DNA from: Escherichia phage SM_S24
Direction: 5' to 3' (one strand)
DNA length: 43,039 bases
Sequence record: PP920554.1
The notes beneath the pieces were generated by a model. The model saw only the letters and a program-made list of their open reading frames with translations, was not told the origin of the DNA and searched no databases. The position numbers and the translations under genes were made by a program. Each line of letters opens with the position of its first letter. The first letter of the stretch is position 1. Shown one piece after another: positions 11,186 to 41,749 of this stretch.

Positions 11186-11447
11186 GAAGCGGGACAAGCG
11201 GGACGCCCCGTTTTGTCCCGCCCCTGTAAAACTGCATATCTAATCACTTTCATTGCATAAACTCAAAGCGGGACAGGCGGGACGTCCCGTTTTGTCCCAC
11301 CCCTGAAATGTGCATACCTATTCGAATTTCGTGCATAAAACAAACGGGACAGAAAGCGGGACAAATGCGGGGCGGGACAAAGCGGGACAGCACCCCATCC
11401 CCACCAGTGCTGCCGCGGTTTTCAGCCGATCGGGACAGGCGGGACAA
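11186..11447 (+). repeat. array A of GCGGGACA(R) octamers with interspersed TGCATA(A) boxes
   Basis: at least 10 same-strand octamer copies (about 11189, 11198, 11268, 11277, 11343, 11355, 11372, 11382, 11431, 11439) plus inverted GTCCCGC copies; non-coding gap between GT stop and tape measure start. Confidence 0.8.
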
Positions 11448-11448
11448 A

Positions 11449-11500
11449 CCCCAGTCTTTCAGACTAGACGGGGGTCAACGGCCCCCCTCGTCTGAGACTG
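11449..11500 (+). other. conserved imperfect hairpin element, copy 1
   Basis: CCCCAGTCTTTCAGACTAGACGGGGG-TCAACGG-CCCCCCTCGTCTGAGACTG; both arms identical to the copy at 38331-38383, loop differs. Confidence 0.75.
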
Positions 11501-11569
11501 AATAAGGTTTGTTTTAAAATCGCTGATACAATGTCAATCGGCAACTGCATAAAAAAAGGGGACTGCATA

Positions 11570-14212
11570 ATGGCAGATCAAGCGGCAGGCATCACGCTGA
11601 AGGCGGATGTCGCACAAATCAGAACGGCGAATACTGTGCTTGATTCATTCGCACAGAAATCCGAGAACACAGAAAACAAGGTTAAGAAATTAAACGACAC
11701 CCTCGGCAAATCCAAAAAGGTGACGAGTGACGCCGCGGGCGGAATGGAGAAGCTGGCGACTGAATCGCAGCGCGCTGCCGATGGCATGACGAAACAGGAG
11801 CGACTTGCCAACAGGTTAGGCATGTCGACCAAAAACCTGGGCTTTGCCTCGCGTAACGCCGCATTCCAGTTACAGGATATTGCGGTAACGCTTGAGATGG
11901 GTATGCCGGTGCACCGCGTTATGCTTCAGCAGTTACCACAGCTTACTGGGGCGTTCGGGGGATTTGGTAACACGCTGCGTTATGTCGCGGGCGTCCTCGG
12001 TCCGGTAGGGATCGGCATTGCAGCACTAACGGCAACTTTAGGCGTAGGGGTGGCAATTACGTCCCGCGCAGAGAACCAGGTCTCAGCGCTTAACAAGACG
12101 CTGGCGCTGTCAGGTAACATTTCCGGCCTAACGGCAAACCAGATCCTGGTGCTATCCGAGAACGCCGAGCGCATGGGCGGATCATTCCGCAAGACGCGTG
12201 ACACAATCCAGGCGCTGGCGGCGGCGGGTGTGAAAGCGGGGGCGGACTTCGGCGCGCTGGCGAAGGTTGTGAATGACTTCGCGAAGGCGTCTAATCAGCC
12301 GATCTCTGACGTGGTTGAATCCATCTCAAAATTGTCGAACGACCCAGTGGGCGGACTGCGTGCGCTGGCGGATAAGTATCATGTCGTTACCGAGGCGCAG
12401 ATCCAGCAGGTGCAATCGCTTGTAGATATGGGGCGTGAAACGGACGCGGTTGCTCTGGCTAACAAAACAGCCGCTGCGTCGTTCTCCAGCATGACCGATG
12501 AGGTAAAGTCCAACATGGGTACGCTTGAGCGGTCGATGAACGTAGTTACATCGGCAGCTAAATCTATGTGGGATGCCATCCTGGATGTGGGCCGCGCGCA
12601 GTCCTCGAATGAGTCCGAGATGAAAGCGCGTGAGTCCTTGCAGCGCATGACCACGGCGTACTATGCCGAGATGAGGGCGGTAAACGCTGCCGGTGGGGTG
12701 ATGACCGAAGCGCAGAAGGCGCGTATTAACATGCTTTACAGCGAACTGGTCGCCCAGGAAAAAGTGGTGGCGTCGCTCACCCTGCGTAACCGTGCTGAGC
12801 GAGACAACGCCCGCGCCGCAGACGAATCCGCAAAGGCGAACGAGGAGGCCAACCGCACTGCCCGTGACCGCGCCGCGTTCGAGAAGGAATACGCCACCAA
12901 CGCTAAGAAGCGCGCCGACGAGATCGCCCGCCTCAATTTGCTGAATAAGCGCGGCGTTATTGATGAGAAAGAACTAGCCGAGGCGGTGAAGCAGGTAAAC
13001 GAGCGGTACAAAGACCCAGCCCCGAAAAAGGCCGCGGCTGTTCGCGTGGATGCCGGTATGAAAATGCTGGAGGTCGCACGGAGCGAACTGGCACAGCTTC
13101 GAGAATCAGGCAAGCAGATCGAAGCCAACGCATCGACGCAGACCCGCACGCAACGCGCGCAAGCGGCCCTTAACAAGCTGATTGCCGACAACGAGCAGTT
13201 AATCGCTGCGAGCAAAGAAAGGGCGCTGACGGCAGCAGAGAAGCAGCAATTAGTCGAATTTGGACGCGTGAAGGAAGTCCGCGAGCAGATCGTCGAAGAA
13301 GCCAAATTGCTGGACGCGAAAGAGAAGCAGGTCAAGGCGCACGCGCAGATCGATGCCTTCGTTAAGAACCAGAACGCAGAGCTAAAAGCCACCGCCGCGG
13401 GCTATGCACTTTCCACTCGCGAAGCGGCTAACCTTCGCGAAGAATTGCAGCTAATTGACCGCCTTCGTCGTGTTGGCGCTAACGATACCGATATTGACCT
13501 GGCGGTGTCTAAGCTGCGCGAAGTGCAGGAAGCACAGACCGGGGCTAACGCCTCGCTATGGGATGGCTTCAGCCGCGGGCTTAAGGATAGCGTTGATGAA
13601 ATGGGTAACGGATATACGCAGATGACGACACTCACAAAATTCACGTTCGGCGCTATGCAGGACACGATGAACGAGTTTTTTGAGACTGGCAAGCTGAACG
13701 CAAAGGATATGGTTAAGTCCATCCTGAGCGAATTAATCAAGCTGGCTACCTCGCAGGCGTTCAAGTCCATCGTTAGCGCTTTCGGTGGTGACGGCGGCAA
13801 AAACGGATTGTTCGGCGCTATCTTCTCTGGCCTTACTAAGAATGCGGACGGCGGAGCGTACGCAGGAGGCAATCTCGCGGCCTATTCGGGGAAAGTGGTA
13901 AGCCAGCCTACCTTTTTCAGTTATGGCGTCCAGGCGTTCGCTAAGGGCGCTGGGTTGATGGGTGAGGCTGGACCCGAGGCCATCATGCCACTGAAGCGCG
14001 GGCCGGACGGGAAACTGGGCGTTGCCGCGTCTGGAGCAGGCGGTGGTATGGTCGTGACGACTAACGTTTACACGGGGACCGGTAAGACGGATACCAGTGT
14101 TGGCGGGCCGGACCCACGTACCGCGCAGGCGTTCGGCAAGCAAATCACCGAGGCGGTGAAGGCCGAGATCGTGAAGGCGACGAAACCGGGTGGTGTACTT
14201 TACAAACGATGA
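11570..14212 (+). CDS. tail tape measure protein
   Basis: 880 aa from ATG 11570 (RBS AAGGGG); long Ala/Gln/Glu-rich helical protein with hydrophobic segments and Gly-rich C-terminal region; position after G/GT. Confidence 0.85.
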   Translation: MADQAAGITLKADVAQIRTANTVLDSFAQKSENTENKVKKLNDTLGKSKKVTSDAAGGMEKLATESQRAADGMTKQERLANRLGMSTKNLGFASRNAAFQLQDIAVTLEMGMPVHRVMLQQLPQLTGAFGGFGNTLRYVAGVLGPVGIGIAALTATLGVGVAITSRAENQVSALNKTLALSGNISGLTANQILVLSENAERMGGSFRKTRDTIQALAAAGVKAGADFGALAKVVNDFAKASNQPISDVVESISKLSNDPVGGLRALADKYHVVTEAQIQQVQSLVDMGRETDAVALANKTAAASFSSMTDEVKSNMGTLERSMNVVTSAAKSMWDAILDVGRAQSSNESEMKARESLQRMTTAYYAEMRAVNAAGGVMTEAQKARINMLYSELVAQEKVVASLTLRNRAERDNARAADESAKANEEANRTARDRAAFEKEYATNAKKRADEIARLNLLNKRGVIDEKELAEAVKQVNERYKDPAPKKAAAVRVDAGMKMLEVARSELAQLRESGKQIEANASTQTRTQRAQAALNKLIADNEQLIAASKERALTAAEKQQLVEFGRVKEVREQIVEEAKLLDAKEKQVKAHAQIDAFVKNQNAELKATAAGYALSTREAANLREELQLIDRLRRVGANDTDIDLAVSKLREVQEAQTGANASLWDGFSRGLKDSVDEMGNGYTQMTTLTKFTFGAMQDTMNEFFETGKLNAKDMVKSILSELIKLATSQAFKSIVSAFGGDGGKNGLFGAIFSGLTKNADGGAYAGGNLAAYSGKVVSQPTFFSYGVQAFAKGAGLMGEAGPEAIMPLKRGPDGKLGVAASGAGGGMVVTTNVYTGTGKTDTSVGGPDPRTAQAFGKQITEAVKAEIVKATKPGGVLYKR

Positions 14213-23944: not shown

Positions 23945-23974
23945 ACTATAGTGCAACCAACCTATTGGTTGCAA
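23945..23974 (-). promoter_or_regulatory. sigma70-like promoter with inverted-repeat operator
   Basis: minus strand TTGCAA-18 nt-TATAGT; spacer holds palindrome TGCAACCAA-CCTA-TTGGTTGCA; a 5' UTR hairpin follows. Confidence 0.45.
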
Positions 23975-24432
23975 GTAAATTTTGCAACGTTTATTGCGTA
24001 AATTTTCGGGACCAAATCGCTGCACGCCCGACGAATTGCCGCGATGTTCTTCTCGCAGTCCTCAATGATGACCAGTTCAGACACGTCCGCGTAGCAGACC
24101 ATTTTGAACACGGCGCACGCCTTAAACTCTGGCGGCGGGGTGTCGTCCAGCATGTGGCGCATGAATAACCGGCCTACAGGGAAGACTTCCAGTTGTTTAG
24201 CGGTGGTGTCCCAACATTCTCGCTGCCGGTTGGTCAGATACGCGATCTCGAAGCCTTGCTCTTTATACATGCGCAGTAGCGGCAGCATATCCATGTTCAG
24301 GTCTTCGCGGACGTGCGCCTTGTGCCACTTCGCCCAAAAGGTGGATTTAGTTTTTATGCCAGGCACCAGATCGGCACGCGCATCGCTTGAGCCGTTAATA
24401 ACGCCATCCAAATCGCAAATCAGTAATTTCAT
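23962..24432 (-). CDS. HAD-superfamily phosphatase-like protein
   Basis: 156 aa; N-terminal LICDLDGVI matches HAD motif I (DxDG), downstream Thr (AYLTNR) plausible motif II. Confidence 0.5.
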   Translation of the reverse strand: MKLLICDLDGVINGSSDARADLVPGIKTKSTFWAKWHKAHVREDLNMDMLPLLRMYKEQGFEIAYLTNRQRECWDTTAKQLEVFPVGRLFMRHMLDDTPPPEFKACAVFKMVCYADVSELVIIEDCEKNIAAIRRACSDLVPKIYAINVAKFTCNQ

Positions 24433-31357: not shown

Positions 31358-32134
31358 TTAACGGCGGCGACGTTTACGTGGCGCTTCGTCTTCGTCCTCA
31401 TCTTCGTCATCGCGTGGCTTACGACGTTTGCGAGGTTTCTCATCTTCGTCTTCGTCGTCGTCATCGCGGCGCTTGGATTTTTTGGACTTGCGCGGCTTGT
31501 CATCTTCATCATCGTCATCACGACGTTTTGACTTCTTAGCCTTGCGCGGTGCTTCGTCTTCGTCGTCGTTGTCCAGGTCTTCATCGGAGCAAGAAGACCC
31601 GCCACCGCCGAAGGCTTCACCGTCATCACGGAATCGCAGACCCAGCAAGCCAGCACCGAGTCCTTTACCGTTGGTATTGTTCCACGCCCAAATATCAAGG
31701 GACACGTTGCAATAACAACCAGAGTAGATCTCCTGGCCTTCAATCTCGTCGCCGTCGATGGTCAGACCTTGTTCAGTCTGCTTCTCGCCGAGTGACGTTT
31801 GAATGATCGGCTGTTTGAACGATTTGGCGTTGATGTACAACATGCCTTCGAATTCTTCGGTTACTTCGTCGCGCTCGTCACCGTCGCGAACTGCGCATTC
31901 CTTAGAATCCTGGGCGTAGTGGCGGTCCATCCACTTATCAGCATTCTTCTCGGATTTCAGCTTGTCGGTGAGCACTGCGCGCGCTGCCGCTTCCACTTTG
32001 TCCACCTGCGGATCTTCTTTATCAAGGAGAATCACTGCACGGTATGCCGGTTTTTGTCCATCCTGTTTAGGGGTATCACGTTCCCAAATTTTAAGGAAAC
32101 ATACGCGCACATTTTTCAGGTTGACTTTAGCCAT
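31358..32134 (-). CDS. T7 gp2.5-like ssDNA-binding protein (DUF2815-like) with alternating acidic/basic repeat tail
   Basis: 258 aa from ATG 32134 (RBS GAGGAA); N-terminus MAKVNLKNVRV typical of gp2.5/DUF2815-type SSBs; C-terminal about 80 aa are four blocks of [D/E]6-9 then [K/R]5-8. Confidence 0.55.
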   Translation of the reverse strand: MAKVNLKNVRVCFLKIWERDTPKQDGQKPAYRAVILLDKEDPQVDKVEAAARAVLTDKLKSEKNADKWMDRHYAQDSKECAVRDGDERDEVTEEFEGMLYINAKSFKQPIIQTSLGEKQTEQGLTIDGDEIEGQEIYSGCYCNVSLDIWAWNNTNGKGLGAGLLGLRFRDDGEAFGGGGSSCSDEDLDNDDEDEAPRKAKKSKRRDDDDEDDKPRKSKKSKRRDDDDEDEDEKPRKRRKPRDDEDEDEDEAPRKRRRR

Positions 32135-34378: not shown

Positions 34379-34894
34379 CTAATCTTCCAGTTCGAAATAG
34401 GTTTCGACGATTTCTTTTAGCTCTTTGTGGAAGTCTTCGACGTCGTCATCTTCCAGCTTGGCGATTGATTTGATCTCGAACGATTCCAGCAGGTCGTCGA
34501 ATTCGTCGATCGCATCGTCGTCATCGCCACCGGCGATAATCGCGGCATACTGTTTGATTTCGTCGCGCATCTCTGCCAGCGGGTCGGCATCTTTCTTACC
34601 TTTGCCTTTCGCCGGTGCTTTCTTAGACTTAGCCGGTTTTTCGTCTTCGGCATCGTCGTCGTCATCTTCTACGACTTCTTTTTTAGCCTTACCTTTCGCC
34701 GGTGCTTTTTTAGATTTAGCCGGTTTTTCGTCTTCAGCTTCATCGTCGTCATCTTCGACAACTTCTTTTTTCGCCTTAGATGGCTTTTTATCTTCCTGCT
34801 TACCAACGGCAGCGCCAACGGTTTCATAATGTTTAGCGATTGTTTCCAGTGCTACTACGCCGCGAGTAATCAGGTTTACGATTTGTTCGAACAT
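34379..34894 (-). CDS. acidic mixed-charge repeat protein (first leftward early gene)
   Basis: 171 aa from ATG 34894 (RBS GGAG); two tandem KPAKSKKAPAKGKAKKEVVEDDDDDAEDE repeats and a strongly acidic C-terminus; own sigma70-like promoter upstream and intrinsic terminator downstream. Confidence 0.5.
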   Translation of the reverse strand: MFEQIVNLITRGVVALETIAKHYETVGAAVGKQEDKKPSKAKKEVVEDDDDEAEDEKPAKSKKAPAKGKAKKEVVEDDDDDAEDEKPAKSKKAPAKGKGKKDADPLAEMRDEIKQYAAIIAGGDDDDAIDEFDDLLESFEIKSIAKLEDDDVEDFHKELKEIVETYFELED

Positions 34895-35090
34895 GGTATA
34901 TCTCCGATTGGTTAAGTTTAGGTGTCGGCAGTTAACTTCGTCGGTGGCCTTAACATATTGCCCGGTTGCGCGTTCTCCCGTTCGGGTAGTGGACCGGGTT
35001 ATATAATCACGGTTGGGAATCCTGACACTTCGATCCGGCCCCTGCGTTGCCCCTCTCCAGTTTGCGTCCTGCATCCTGTCGACGGAGTGA

Positions 35091-35120
35091 ATGATAGATT
35101 GGTTGCAGGATGGGTGTCAA
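35091..35120 (-). promoter_or_regulatory. leftward early promoter (sigma70-like)
   Basis: minus strand TTGACA-18 nt-TATCAT; TGCAACCAAT box inside the spacer. Confidence 0.55.
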
Positions 35121-35131
35121 CAACTAATTTC

Positions 35132-35165
35132 AAAAAAAAAGCGCCGAGGCAAAATGCACCGGCGC
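35132..35165 (-). terminator. intrinsic terminator upstream of the leftward early promoter (minus strand)
   Basis: GCGCCGGTGCATTTTGCCTCGGCGC followed by nine T on the minus strand. Confidence 0.6.
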
Positions 35166-35195
35166 TAACCAATAAGAGACAATGAGACGGGAATT

Positions 35196-35224
35196 ATTAT
35201 TACACGCGTGCGCGCCCGTTTCAA
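35196..35224 (-). promoter_or_regulatory. second leftward promoter-like element upstream of the terminator
   Basis: minus strand TTGAAA-17 nt-AATAAT; predicted start about 58 nt upstream of the 35132-35165 terminator end. Confidence 0.35.
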
Positions 35225-35236
35225 TATCCAAAGGAT

Positions 35237-35265
35237 TTGACACCTTGTGGTTTTAGGTGTAGTTT
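35237..35265 (+). promoter_or_regulatory. rightward early promoter for the HTH regulator gene
   Basis: TTGACA-17 nt-TAGTTT, back-to-back with the leftward promoter elements. Confidence 0.5.
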
Positions 35266-35296
35266 CATTGGTCATTAGCCAACAGGAGACTGAATT

Positions 35297-35636: not shown

Positions 35637-37901
35637 ATGAGCTTAATTAAATTCGCTGTAACAAGACCCGCTAAAAAAGGCGAAAAAGCCAGGGCGGAAA
35701 ACTTCCAGATGACTACCGAAGAGTTTTTCGAATTTATCAATGATGCGAAAGAAATCTCCTCGGTGCATATCAACAAAACGGAAGATAAAGCCGAGTATGC
35801 ACGCCGCAAGCGTAAGGCCGACGGCATCGTGGCGTATACCAGTGACGGATTGCGTCGCAAGACCAGTGCGGTGGACCGCTCGATCCTGTTCTTCGATATT
35901 GACCGTACTGACACCCGCACCCTACGCCGCTGCCGTAAGGCGTTCATCGACGCGGGACTGGAGCACGTCTTCCACACCACAACCGGCGACCGTCACCCAC
36001 TGAAAGGTGGAACGCGTTGCGCTCGCTTCCTGGTGTTGACCGACAAGCCTGTACCGGCTGAAGACCTGGGCCGTGTCCAGTATGCGCTATTACACCAACT
36101 GGGCCTGTCAGATGTGGACTTCGACGACTGCACGAAAGACACAAACCGCCTTATGTACCTACCACACCAGCAGTCTGTTATTAAGTGCCACTATGGCAAG
36201 CGCGCCCGCGTCCGTCGTCTGCTTCGCCTGGCTGACAAGCTGGGAGTTGAGAAAGAGGAAGTCCGCCGCGAACTGACCCAGGGCGACGACGCAGTGGCAG
36301 ACGGCATTCTGGACTGGTGCTTCCAGGCAGGATTCGAGGAGTTATCTTCCGGTCGGGGTTATGAAGTGCCGTGCCCGAACGAACATCTGCACAGCGGCGA
36401 AGGGTCGACGGCTATCATGGTCAAGGATGGCGAGATCCGTTTCAAGTGTATGCACACAGGCAACGAGTGTTGCTCGGAACTGAATAGGCACCAGCACCTG
36501 GCGCTACGTCTTATCGGGATCCCGGACCACCTGAACGTCGAGCCACACAATATGTCCCGTAAGCAAATCGCCGCCATCCTTCCGGGGCTGGACGACGAAG
36601 AAGTCGAATCCTTATATGAACATATTGTTGATGCAGTTGGCGACGGCGAAGAATACGGCGTGTGCACCGATGCAGATCTGGATAACGAGCCGGTTGCGCT
36701 GTTCAGTAAGCACGACCCGATTATCGAGGGGTTGATTAACTTTAAATCGACCTGGTACATGGCGGGTGAGTCGAATATCGGTAAGTCTTTCTACGTGCTG
36801 GGCCAGATGGGTGCGGTTGCCGCGGGGATTCCGTTCGGCGGTGCGAAGGTCGTCCAGTCTCATTGCTTCTATTTCGACGCGGAAGGTGGTGAAGCCTCCA
36901 ACCAGCGTAAGGAAGCACTGCAGATCAAATATGAGCACGACCTGGATAAGCTGCACATTATAGACCTGCAGTCACGCGGCTGGGATATCACCAGCAAATC
37001 AGGCTTGCGCGAAGTTATCAGCTTTATCAACCGCACCGCTAACGGCGAACCGGTTGGCCTGGTGGCGTTCGACTCTCTCAACCAGACTGTTGCGCTGCGG
37101 TCCGCCGATGCTAAACCGTTCGACGAGAACAACGCCAGCGATATGGGCGAAGTGGTAAAAGCGCTGAAAGCCATCGCGGAAAATACCGGCGGCAGTGCTG
37201 GCGTCATCCACCACCCGGCGAAGGGTGCAAACGGCAGCAGATCCCCCCGCGGGTCCGGCGCGCTGCATGGTGCTGTTGATTCTGCGTTCTTCCTTGAGCA
37301 ACCGGACGACAACCAGCCAGGCCAATTGAACCTGTATCACGAAAAGGCACGTAACGGCATCAAGCAAGCGCCGCGTGGCTTCGTCCTGCTCAAGTGCAAG
37401 GTGAAGGTAGATCTCCGCAAGTCAGAAGCGTTCGCGTCGCACCAGTCCACCAGCACCGGTCCGGACTTCGGCGACGTGGTTGCCGGATGGGACGTCAAGC
37501 CGATTGCCTCCACGCCACGCGACGAGACTCTCTACCTCGTACCGGTTGCCCTGGCACCGTTCGCTATTGAACAGGCGAAGGCCGCGGGCAAAGCAGCAGT
37601 TAAAGAAGAGAACACCGCCGGACCGCGCAACGAAAAAGAGAAAGTGCTCTATGCGGCACTGGAAAAACTGATGGAAGATAACCCGGACCATACTGGATTC
37701 AGTAAATCGGCAATTGTCCGCCAGGCTGGGCTGGCAAAAGGTGGCACTTCGACGAAGGCAATCGACGATATGGTGGAGCGAGGAGTGATAGGTTTTTACA
37801 CCGATCCGCACACCGGGGCCATCTATGGGTCGTCTAATTTGGTCATCAAATCGGATATACCCATCACGCTTTCAGCGACCGATGACGATTTAAAAGATTA
37901 A
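35637..37901 (+). CDS. primase-helicase (AEP-type primase, zinc-binding region, P-loop NTPase)
   Basis: 754 aa; N-terminal DxD-type motif ILFFDIDRTD, Cys/His cluster CPNEHLHSGE...CMHTGNEC, Walker A GESNIGKS and Walker B-like LVAFDSL; iteron array begins at its stop codon. Confidence 0.7.
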   Translation: MSLIKFAVTRPAKKGEKARAENFQMTTEEFFEFINDAKEISSVHINKTEDKAEYARRKRKADGIVAYTSDGLRRKTSAVDRSILFFDIDRTDTRTLRRCRKAFIDAGLEHVFHTTTGDRHPLKGGTRCARFLVLTDKPVPAEDLGRVQYALLHQLGLSDVDFDDCTKDTNRLMYLPHQQSVIKCHYGKRARVRRLLRLADKLGVEKEEVRRELTQGDDAVADGILDWCFQAGFEELSSGRGYEVPCPNEHLHSGEGSTAIMVKDGEIRFKCMHTGNECCSELNRHQHLALRLIGIPDHLNVEPHNMSRKQIAAILPGLDDEEVESLYEHIVDAVGDGEEYGVCTDADLDNEPVALFSKHDPIIEGLINFKSTWYMAGESNIGKSFYVLGQMGAVAAGIPFGGAKVVQSHCFYFDAEGGEASNQRKEALQIKYEHDLDKLHIIDLQSRGWDITSKSGLREVISFINRTANGEPVGLVAFDSLNQTVALRSADAKPFDENNASDMGEVVKALKAIAENTGGSAGVIHHPAKGANGSRSPRGSGALHGAVDSAFFLEQPDDNQPGQLNLYHEKARNGIKQAPRGFVLLKCKVKVDLRKSEAFASHQSTSTGPDFGDVVAGWDVKPIASTPRDETLYLVPVALAPFAIEQAKAAGKAAVKEENTAGPRNEKEKVLYAALEKLMEDNPDHTGFSKSAIVRQAGLAKGGTSTKAIDDMVERGVIGFYTDPHTGAIYGSSNLVIKSDIPITLSATDDDLKD

Positions 37902-38167
37902 ATTTTGCGCGCATTGGTCGCCGTTATGGGAATCCCCATATCGGTAAAAGATTAAATTTTGCGCGCATTGGTCGCCGTTATGGGAATCCCCATATCGGTA
38001 AAAGATTAAATTTTGCGCGCATTGGTTGCCATTTTGCGTGCTTTTAGCCGGTCGTTAAAAGATTAAATTTTGCGCGCATTGGTCGCCGTTATGGGAATCC
38101 CCATATCGGTAAAAGATTAAATTTTGCGCGCATTGGTTGCCATTTTGCGTGCTTTTAGCCGGTCGTA
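37892..38167. repeat. iteron array, candidate origin of replication
   Basis: five tandem 54-57 bp units (A-A-B-A-B) sharing core AAAAGATTAAATTTTGCGCGCATTGGT(C/T)GCC with the 8-bp palindrome TGCGCGCA; begins at the primase-helicase stop codon. Confidence 0.6.
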
Positions 38168-38194
38168 TTGGTTGCCGTGTAGTGTAAATATAAT
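38168..38194 (+). promoter_or_regulatory. promoter-like element upstream of GGGACA array B
   Basis: perfect TATAAT at about 38189-38194 with weak -35 (TTGGTT, 15-nt spacer) inside an ATTGGTTGCC box. Confidence 0.35.
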
Positions 38195-38224
38195 GAATAG
38201 TTATGCAGTTTTATTGCATAAAGT

Positions 38225-38330
38225 AAGCGGGACAAAAAGCGGGACAGACCAGGGGCGGGACAAAGCGGGACAGCACCCTGTCCCGCCCCGGATGACGCGG
38301 CCTGGCGAGGAGCGGGACAGCGGGACAGCA
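38225..38330 (+). repeat. array B of GCGGGACA(R) octamers
   Basis: copies at about 38227, 38239, 38255, 38265, 38312, 38321 plus inverted TGTCCCGC at 38279; preceded by a TTATGCA/TGCATAA inverted pair and a TATAAT box. Confidence 0.8.
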
Positions 38331-38383
38331 CCCCAGTCTTTCAGACTAGACGGGGGGTCTGGCACCCCCCTCGTCTGAGACTG
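38331..38383 (+). other. conserved imperfect hairpin element, copy 2
   Basis: CCCCAGTCTTTCAGACTAGACGGGGGG-TCTGGCA-CCCCCCTCGTCTGAGACTG; arms identical to copy 1. Confidence 0.75.
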
Positions 38384-38542
38384 CATAAAATCCGGGATTG
38401 CATAACGCACGGCAACAAGATGCGAATTGCGGTCGTCGATGAACTAGGCAACCAATGCGCGTTGCAGAATGGTGGGCGAAAAATGCAGTTTGCAGTTGCA
38501 GCAGATAGCGATCAACTTTTTCATGCGCGTGATTAATATTGG

Positions 38543-38571
38543 TTGCATTCACCCTGGCACCCTGCTATTTT
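38543..38571 (+). promoter_or_regulatory. promoter-like element upstream of the 38600 operon
   Basis: TTGCAT-17 nt-TATTTT; -35 inside ATTGGTTGCAT, second TTGGTTGCA just downstream; region nearly identical to the moron 5' region. Confidence 0.45.
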
Positions 38572-38599
38572 GGTTGCACACCAACAAGAGGACTGAACG

Positions 38600-38926
38600 A
38601 TGAGAGCGATTATCTGGAATTACGCAATGGCTATGGCGGCGGCACAAGAAGCGGCGGAGTTCGCCGGTGAAGGAGCGGAAGCGGTCGAAAGACTATCGGC
38701 AGCGTGGTCCGTTGTTCGCGTTACGCAGCAGGCCATCGCCTGTATGCTGGAGCGCCGCTTCGACACTATGGCAGAGATTCAGCCACTGGCGAACGCTATC
38801 CAGGATTACGCGCTTGCCTTTGCCCGTGAGCGCCTGGCGTATCGCTTCGGGATCGGCGAGACGGCAGTGACTAACGTCGCCCGGATTAAAGCCCAGCGTG
38901 AGCTATTCTCCCAGCTTGCGAAATAA
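38600..38926 (+). CDS. hypothetical protein
   Basis: 108 aa, RBS AAGAGGA 7 nt upstream; first gene after the second GGGACA array. Confidence 0.45.
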   Translation: MRAIIWNYAMAMAAAQEAAEFAGEGAEAVERLSAAWSVVRVTQQAIACMLERRFDTMAEIQPLANAIQDYALAFARERLAYRFGIGETAVTNVARIKAQRELFSQLAK

Positions 38927-41578: not shown

Positions 41579-41604
41579 AAGCCCGGTTAATTCCGGGCTT
41601 TTTA
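41579..41604 (+). terminator. intrinsic terminator after the lysis cassette
   Basis: AGCCCGG-TTAATT-CCGGGCT followed by TTTTAT. Confidence 0.6.
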
Positions 41605-41608
41605 TTGC

Positions 41609-41638
41609 TTGACTTGCAACCAATTAATAGCTCATACT
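41609..41638 (+). promoter_or_regulatory. promoter-like element upstream of the leader-like peptide and HTH-phosphoesterase gene
   Basis: TTGACT then TGCAACCAAT in the spacer, -10-like CATACT, second TGCGACCAAT downstream. Confidence 0.4.
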
Positions 41639-41668
41639 GCGACCAATCAACGAGAGGAGTAATACACT

Positions 41669-41749
41669 ATGGCACGTAATGATATTTGGGTATTGGCAAT
41701 CTGGTCAGCCGCGGGATTTATCGGTATGGTTATTTGCGAATTGATATAG
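41669..41749 (+). CDS. hydrophobic mini-ORF (leader-like peptide)
   Basis: 26 aa (MARNDIWVLAIWSAAGFIGMVICELI) with RBS AGGAG 9 nt upstream, followed by a perfect 9-bp hairpin; may be regulatory rather than a stable protein. Confidence 0.2.
   Translation: MARNDIWVLAIWSAAGFIGMVICELI

Follow-up and report, generated by a model that had tools for sequence, protein, structure and literature searches.

Directly behind the primase-helicase gene of Escherichia phage SM_S24 (sequence record PP920554.1; the whole stretch of 43,039 nucleotides that was analyzed is called the window), five tandem repeat units lead into a long non-coding region. In an initial annotation, these units were read as the iterons of a replication origin. 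Our comparisons indicate that the conspicuous array is ordinary copy-number polymorphism of predicted binding-site DNA and not a core element, while we infer that the conserved non-coding region bordering it is the best candidate for the unmapped replication origin. A BLAST search with positions 37600-38600 against 50,697 phage records gave matches in 158 of them, nearly all Escherichia and Shigella phages of the genus Dhillonvirus, with Shigella phage StarDew as the top match (98% identity). By these sequence matches the window is a Dhillonvirus, that is, an HK578-like coliphage of the genus that also holds SO-1 and EP23. Dhillonviruses (HK578, several BASEL phages, SO-1) are common tools in phage-host and defence research, and their origin is still unmapped.

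The features of the locus are collected in Table 1. The gp45-like gene opens the operon that also carries the primase-helicase gene. The primase-helicase consists of an N-terminal primase-like part, a hexameric helicase core like that of RSF1010 RepA, and a variable C-terminal winged-helix-like domain (residues about 660-740). A conserved Cys/His cluster lies in the N-terminal part, with C246, H252, C271, H273, and C279 invariant. An AlphaFold2 model of the protein reached a pLDDT (predicted local distance difference test) of 80, and its core was matched by Foldseek to 1g8y, the RSF1010 RepA hexameric helicase, with a target-normalised TM-score of 0.69. The open reading frame (ORF) terminates ...D-L-K-D-TAA, the stop codon being 37899-37901. 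The acidic C-terminal tail ...DDLKD is kept across genera (elsewhere as DLED or DLEN), and its codons belong to the repeated unit. T7 gp4 has a polymerase-binding acidic tail, of which the DDLKD tail is reminiscent.

Table 1. Genes and sequence elements at the primase-helicase locus and at the related region near 11.3 kb of the window.
Feature	Position	Strand	Remarks
gp45-like small helix-turn-helix protein, 109 aa	35297-35626	+	Pfam HTH_23 and Sigma70_r4_2, E about 1e-6
Primase-helicase, 754 aa	35637-37901	+	Pfam AAA_25, PHROG 3228; the genus's "replicative helicase-primase"
Tandem array A-A-B-A-B	37891-38166	+	Units of 54/54/57/54/57 bp
Unit U1 (A)	37891-37944	+	Direct reading
Unit U2 (A)	37945-37998	+	Direct reading
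Unit U3 (B)	37999-38055	+	Direct reading
Unit U4 (A)	38056-38109	+	Direct reading
Unit U5 (B)	38110-38166	+	Direct reading
Sixth direct box ATTGGTTGCC, then -10-like TATAAT (38189-38194)	38167-38194 (box 38167-38176)	+	Box invariant in 17 Dhillonviruses
Candidate DNA-unwinding element with conserved TGAATAGTTATGCA and quasi-palindrome ATGCAGTTTTATTGCAT (38203-38219)	38177-38227		Duplex stability
Seven GCGGGACA octamers, six direct and one inverted; proposed initiator iterons	38227-38327	+	Invariant within the genus
Imperfect 18-bp hairpin, invariant stem, hypervariable loop	38334-38383	+	Conserved; also at 11452-11501
Inverted box (GGCAACCAATGCGCG)	38447-38461	-	Faces the array across unwinding element, octamers, and hairpin; GGCAACCAAT genus-invariant
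Downstream-operon promoter: TTGCAT (38543-38548), 17 bp, TATTTT (38566-38571), two TTGGTTGCA boxes	38538-38599	+	
Region A: second octamer-plus-hairpin module	11187-11570	+	Between tail chaperone genes and tape-measure gene

The tandem array and its shared box

Tandem Repeats Finder reported the array with a period of 54 (4.6 copies, score 384) and with a period of 111 (2.5 copies, 91% matches, score 447), and direct reading resolved it into the five units of the order A-A-B-A-B given by the initial annotation. The A copies are 100% identical among themselves, as are both B copies. Each unit is built of an AT tract, the palindrome TGCGCGCA, the box ATTGGTYGCC, and either tail A, a near-palindrome, or tail B. 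The common core TAAAAGATTAAATTTTGCGCGCATTGGT(C/T)GCC was found exactly 5 times against 0 expected, the palindrome TGCGCGCA has 5 copies in the array and 1 elsewhere in the window, and the A-tail palindrome is confined to the array; core, palindrome, and both tails are as they had been described. The array had also been placed at the primase-helicase stop codon. This codon does lie inside unit 1, but the unit already begins in the last codons of the gene (37891). Since unit 1 contains the stop codon, every unit repeats the final codons ...K-D-stop. The box-to-box spacing of 54/54/57/54/35 bp shows no helical phasing. Folded as a single strand, the array gave a z of -4.2, which is due to the palindromes and therefore does not discriminate between readings. 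The A-tail hairpin was considered as a canonical terminator and rejected because no T run follows it.

The unit number was read in 19 related loci, and 17 Dhillonviruses were included in the conservation comparison of the gap behind the gene. Phages about 90% identical differ in unit number, from 0 to 6. The unit core is missing altogether from EP23, which was isolated and has a complete genome on deposit; this phage retains the B tail and the last box, while HK578, SO-1, SSL-2009a, YD-2008.s, and EK99P-1 have the B unit alone. Most phages, StarDew and Gluttony included, carry two units (A-B), PNS1 carries three (A-A-B), and Teewinot carries six, with A/B hybrids and one truncated unit, as an independent expansion. 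When 60 of the 158 records were sampled broadly, the lengths of the matched spans fell into the same classes of about 780, 835, 889, and 1017 nucleotides. The B-to-A junction of the window was found in no other record of the phage collection or of IMG/VR. At the position of the array, the Ioannina/LM40P1 lineage has three 25-bp repeats spaced 32 and 35 bp apart.

The array thus has the properties of a variable-number tandem repeat, with a copy number that differs among close relatives and copies that are identical within a genome. Several direct repeats are present, as in an iteron origin (six direct ATTGGTYGCC boxes and one inverted, in addition to five tandem units), but the set is not conserved, since relatives have 0-6 units and box orientation and spacing vary. 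These comparisons indicate that the array arose recently, as a strain-specific expansion in tandem of a short module, and that ancestrally one to three ATTGGTTGCC boxes surrounded the stop codon of the primase-helicase gene. An added A unit and an added A-B unit gave the window six direct boxes in place of three. As far as the sequences suggest, the expansion may have proceeded by unequal recombination between 32-bp cores and one microhomology (TA) duplication of A-B. Judged from the relatives, these phages can do without the extra units and even without the whole unit core. For tests of box function, the natural 0- to 6-unit series offers ready material.

The box, by comparison, is widespread, and its sequence drifts slowly between lineages. 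In the window, ATTGGTYGC has 20 copies against 1.1 expected. Its GCC variant ATTGGTYGCC has 8 copies against 0.22 expected, and 7 of the 8 lie in the intergenic region after the primase-helicase gene, six of them direct (37913-38176) and one inverted (38447-38456). The sixth direct box, the inverted copy, and all elements downstream had been overlooked in the initial annotation. L029 and L033-L037, related loci with a primase-helicase 67-70% identical to that of the window, have neither the AT tract nor the TGCGCGCA palindrome nor either of the two tails. These loci keep the box GAATTGGTTGCCA, with one copy inside the gene end and one to three past the stop codon, some of them inverted. In relatives with a 44-48% identical primase-helicase, the box straddles the stop codon and returns inverted 250-600 bp downstream; it takes the form TTGGTTGC in eiAU-183, TTGGCTGC in FSL SP-031, TTGGCAGC in L030, and TTGGCCGC in L031. 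Box sets in inverse orientation are also present in L030, L031, eiAU-183, and Ioannina. Across these lineages the aligned loci indicate that the 10-bp box is the sole conserved part of the unit.

Related TTGGTTGCA boxes occur in intergenic regions genome-wide, at about a dozen promoters, where they overlap the -35, the spacer, or the -10 of sigma-70-like promoters and are often paired. By this overlap the box behaves as a transcription-factor site. Because the box is common to promoters, the link between transcription and replication control proposed in the initial annotation from the ATTGGT(C/T)GCC variant is plausible. The array itself is not a series of sigma-70 promoters, as no -35/-10 pair at 16-18 bp was found per unit and only the sixth box has a TATAAT. 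As a -35, the sixth box has a poor spacing of 15 bp to this hexamer, which is retained as TAnnnT in most of the 17 Dhillonviruses. A consensus promoter/terminator scan yielded zero promoter-like sites in 37700-38700, array included. The downstream-operon promoter listed in Table 1 is followed by the ribosome-binding site of the gene at 38600-38926.

Two further arrangements of the box lie elsewhere in the window. At 23950-23975, a perfect palindromic double box, GCAACCAA-tagg-TTGGTTGC, covers a TTGCAA-18-TATAGT promoter in a divergent intergenic region. Between plus-strand genes (41600-41700), two TTGGTYGC boxes on the minus strand (41616-41647) precede a GC hairpin with a T run behind it (AAAAAGCCCGGAATTAACCGGGCTT); to judge from this layout, a short transcription unit for an antisense or small RNA may lie here.

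The conserved non-coding region

The gap of ∼700 bp between the primase-helicase gene and the downstream operon (37902-38599) is as conserved as the flanking coding sequence, which indicates that this non-coding DNA is under purifying selection. Its invariant blocks are the sixth box, TGAATAGTTATGCA, the seven GCGGGACA octamers, the 18-bp hairpin, the inverted box, and the downstream-operon promoter. According to nearest-neighbour energies, no other 30-bp or 50-bp duplex in the 43-kb window is as unstable as the candidate unwinding element, which lies about 4 standard deviations from the mean. It sits exactly between the last box and the octamers, in the adjacent position expected of an AT-rich unwinding element, and its GAATAGTTATGCAG is kept in Cornellvirus FSL SP-031 and in L033, L034, and L037. 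No DnaA boxes (TTWTNCACA) and no IHF sites were found in 37880-38600, which fits phage-encoded initiation. GATC is not enriched there.

The quasi-palindrome inside this element reads ATGCA-GTTTTAT-TGCAT, and its central 7 bp are found in either orientation among Dhillonviruses, as GTTTTAT in the window, StarDew, Gluttony, and HK578 and as ATAAAAC in SO-1, Teewinot, YD-2008.s, and EK99P-1. This orientation switch inside the least stable duplex looks like a hairpin-templated inversion.

The octamers begin about 60 bp beyond the array. GCGGGACA has 18 copies in the window against 2 expected, and 14 of the 18 form two clusters of seven each, at 38227-38327 and at 11189-11446. The second cluster belongs to region A, where octamers and hairpin are found again: 11332-11510 is 80% identical to 38213-38395 over about 180 bp. 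Both places are annotated as repeat regions, A and B, in the SO-1 record. In the hairpin, double changes that preserve pairing are few (three pairs, each change in a single sequence).

Region A is 380 bp of non-coding DNA in an odd place and also carries TGCATAA motifs; its equivalent in eiAU-183 holds TTGGTTGC boxes instead. Several GenBank and metagenome records, L033 and L036 included, end inside the region behind the primase-helicase gene, e.g., at about 38388 or 38495 or 110-210 bp past the stop codon, as would be expected if assemblies broke at the tandem units or at the region A/B repeat. StarDew gp50 and gp51 (L001 3360-3840; window 38124-38378) are ORFs that vary in strand and extent between records and overlap the octamers. 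By this criterion, ORFs inside the conserved non-coding region are probably not genes. No tRNAs were found in the window, and an Rfam search of the whole window and of the region gave nothing above threshold, only chance microRNA matches. Tandem repeats are also present in minus-strand ORFs at 34590-34778 (87 bp x 2.2) and 31449-31569 (54 bp x 2.2), where they encode acidic or lysine-rich low-complexity segments.

The most divergent part of the primase-helicase is its C-terminal region of about 90 residues, which is arranged helix-helix-helix-strand-strand in the model. When this domain was modelled alone, all top fold matches were winged-helix folds, with E values of 0.2-0.9. Across lineages, the octamer changes in step with helix 2 of the domain, giving five types: GCGGGACA occurs with FSKSAI..QAG (window, L029, L037), GTGTGGCA with FSRRAIL..AG (L033, L034), GTGTGCCA with FSARQIMLNAG (L035), GGTGCCA with FSKAAIMRASG (L036), and GGGGGAGA with FAPADVIKIVG (FSL SP-031). 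The box remains constant while the domain diverges, so that co-variation of a repeat with the initiator domain, as expected of iterons, is seen for the octamers and not for the box. These natural octamer/domain pairs in five lineages are a ready-made specificity-swap set.

Regardless of octamer type, all Dhillon-like lineages share an unchanged helix-turn-helix segment in gp45 and an unchanged box, which makes gp45 a reasonable candidate for the binder of the TTGGTTGC box. The small helix-turn-helix proteins encoded upstream of the primase-helicase gene belong to two unrelated families. When a conserved sequence-specific regulator common to Dhillonvirus and eiAU-183 was sought, none was found, only nuclease, single-stranded DNA-binding, and unknown-function proteins.

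Candidate origin and competing explanations

Taken together, the features of the region suggest an origin of the P4 ori/crr type, in which the octamers would be the initiator sites and the array a copy-number-variable set of accessory or regulatory boxes that is dispensable when expanded. We consider this explanation about evenly balanced between right and wrong. The C-terminal winged-helix domain of the primase-helicase would recognise the GCGGGACA octamers, and the enzyme would open the adjoining AT-rich segment and load there. Accessory cis elements, comparable to crr of P4, may be provided by the conserved hairpin and by the second octamer module near 11.3 kb. The boxes, present also at promoters, would bind a separate conserved factor, for which gp45 is the best Dhillon-like candidate, and this factor could couple or insulate transcription at the origin, either by activation from the sixth box and its TATAAT or by blocking transcription that reads through from the primase-helicase gene. 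The extra units would supply more binding sites, yet be unneeded. In HK578, mutations that allow escape from OLD defence were located in gp46 and in the promoter of gp45-46, and the authors regard these as replication-initiation genes (preprint 10.64898/2026.07.10.737580). That work on replication initiation in HK578 would gain from a mapped origin. The present analysis leaves a defined interval of 500 bp in which to look for the origin and tells apart three sequence elements with testable binders.

An improbable, more far-reaching version would join the 38.2- and 11.3-kb modules into a two-part origin in Dhillon-like and related phages, with a swappable winged-helix domain by which the RepA-fold primase-helicase reads lineage-specific octamers, a separate factor for the genome-wide promoter boxes that gates firing, and an array that acts as an evolvable copy-number dial. 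If this were true, the dial would couple the early transcription programme to replication timing.

Several observations weigh against a P4-like origin at this place. In the collection of papers that was searched, neither a mapping of a Dhillonvirus origin nor a discussion of these repeats was found. The GC skew shows no shift at 38 kb and has its cumulative minimum at about 35 kb; it follows the direction of transcription and is therefore uninformative for the origin. The fold matches of the C-terminal domain are weak, and the domain of P4 alpha itself is not among the top ones. The lineages that show octamer/domain covariation are few and phylogenetically nested, so that the covariation is suggestive and not proof. 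The octamer-plus-hairpin module is preceded by a possible promoter and followed by long operons, and may have a role at the RNA level. Finally, eiAU-183 has the same box without a gp45 homologue, and an unrelated Cro-like helix-turn-helix protein instead, which favours the primase-helicase or another protein as binder and would bring the boxes nearer to true iterons.

An origin in which the units themselves are the iterons, bound by the primase-helicase, e.g., through its zinc-binding region, is rather unlikely. The direct repeats do start at the stop codon of the initiator gene and adjoin the most AT-rich segment of the genome, and a box cluster is kept here across genera that share the primase-helicase as their sole common neighbouring protein, eiAU-183 without gp45 among them. 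The 25-bp repeats of Ioannina and LM40P1, moreover, are more iteron-like. However, only the 10-bp box of the unit is not lineage-specific, and this box recurs at about a dozen promoters and stays fixed while the variable DNA-binding-like domain of the primase-helicase changes. Near-identical phages have between 0 and 6 units, EP23 does without the core, and the spacing is unphased. What is supported of the initial annotation is the origin-like anatomy beside the primase-helicase gene; the units as its defining iteron array are not supported (0-6 copies, only the box kept). Regulation of transcription alone, with the boxes as operators through which a phage factor controls the downstream operon, the array as duplicated operators, and the origin elsewhere, would agree with the often paired TTGGTYGC boxes over sigma-70-like promoter elements, with the box ahead of the conserved TATAAT-like hexamer, with the two boxes that bracket the promoter 38543-38571, and with the sigma-region-4/HTH_23-like nature of gp45. 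We consider it unlikely, as the consensus scan gave no promoter inside the array, and octamer clusters that covary with a primase-helicase domain and are duplicated within the tail gene block would be left unexplained, as would the position of the genome's least stable duplex. A further argument against it comes from the other origin site considered, 35075-35296: this site has the lowest stability at the 100-bp scale, but only the gp45-46 promoter (TTGACA-17-TAGTTT) and a terminator-like hairpin, no repeats, and it was rejected. A pac site was set aside because the region lies 4.5 kb from the terminase genes.

Two further explanations leave the DNA of the region with other roles or with none. 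The octamer-plus-hairpin modules at 38.2 and 11.3 kb could act as RNA, either as a small RNA or as a cis-acting antiterminator like put of HK022, with the array as upstream promoter or operator DNA. Each of the two similar modules precedes a long rightward operon, the hairpin combines an invariant stem with a hypervariable loop and three pairs with double changes, and in region B the module is preceded by a -10-like hexamer. Nevertheless, an RNA function appears quite improbable: no Rfam family was matched, the covariation is thin, with each double change in a single sequence, no comparable promoter was seen upstream of region A, and octamers that occur in both orientations and co-vary with a protein domain resemble protein-binding DNA. 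That the array is a functionless product of neutral slippage or of assembly, boxes included, is very improbable. Its copies are identical, polymorphic in number, arranged in a way private to the window, and dispensable in relatives, but the box is invariant in the genus and keeps its position across genera, and finished genomes do contain such arrays, as the independent expansions in PNS1 and Teewinot demonstrate. The P4-like origin would also be compatible with neutral extra copies.

Comparison with known systems

In P4, alpha is a multifunctional primase-helicase with a C-terminal winged-helix DNA-binding domain, and its octamers lie in two clusters, ori and crr, kilobases apart. The window likewise has one multifunctional primase-helicase and octamer repeats in two separate cis regions, one of them next to the gene and with a tandem duplication; the C-terminal domain of its enzyme may be a winged helix as well, to judge from weak fold matches. 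In contrast to P4 alpha, which belongs to superfamily 3 (SF3), its helicase core has the RSF1010 RepA/RecA fold (AAA_25) and not the D5/P4-type SF3 fold. The octamer clusters of the window are 27 kb apart, octamer binding is here predicted from sequence, and the second motif, the promoter-shared TTGGTTGC box, is without a P4 counterpart.

RSF1010 and other IncQ plasmids use the helicase RepA, the primase RepB', and a separate iteron-binding initiator, RepC, with 20-bp iterons. RepA is the closest solved structure to the helicase core of the window, and, as in the IncQ oriV, direct repeats are followed by an AT-rich segment and then by hairpin-type single-strand initiation signals. Unlike in IncQ, primase and helicase are fused in the window, the two hairpins are on the same strand, and no RepC-like protein was found. 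The gene order resembles that of pRN1 orf56/orf904, an operon in which a small DNA-binding repressor gene is followed by that of a multifunctional primase-helicase, with the origin, the essential cis region, just downstream of the gene (PMC4234260); this is a precedent for the origin position proposed in the window. However, pRN1 is an archaeal plasmid with a primase-polymerase and an SF3 helicase, and its downstream element is a single stem-loop region with no repeat arrays.

With lambda ori and plasmid iteron origins, the window shares direct repeats by an AT-rich unwinding element near the initiator gene. Classic iterons are 17-22 bp long, phased, fixed in number, and initiator-specific, whereas the units of the window are 54-57 bp long, unphased, and present in 0 to 6 copies, with a conserved core that is also found at promoters. 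In the MotA-dependent origins of T4 and the primary origin of T7, a promoter element for a phage factor lies directly upstream of the unwinding element, and transcription can prime or activate replication. The sixth box, TATAAT, and AT-rich segment of the window, known here from sequence alone, are arranged in a similar way, while, in contrast to T4 and T7, Dhillonviruses additionally carry the octamer repeats.

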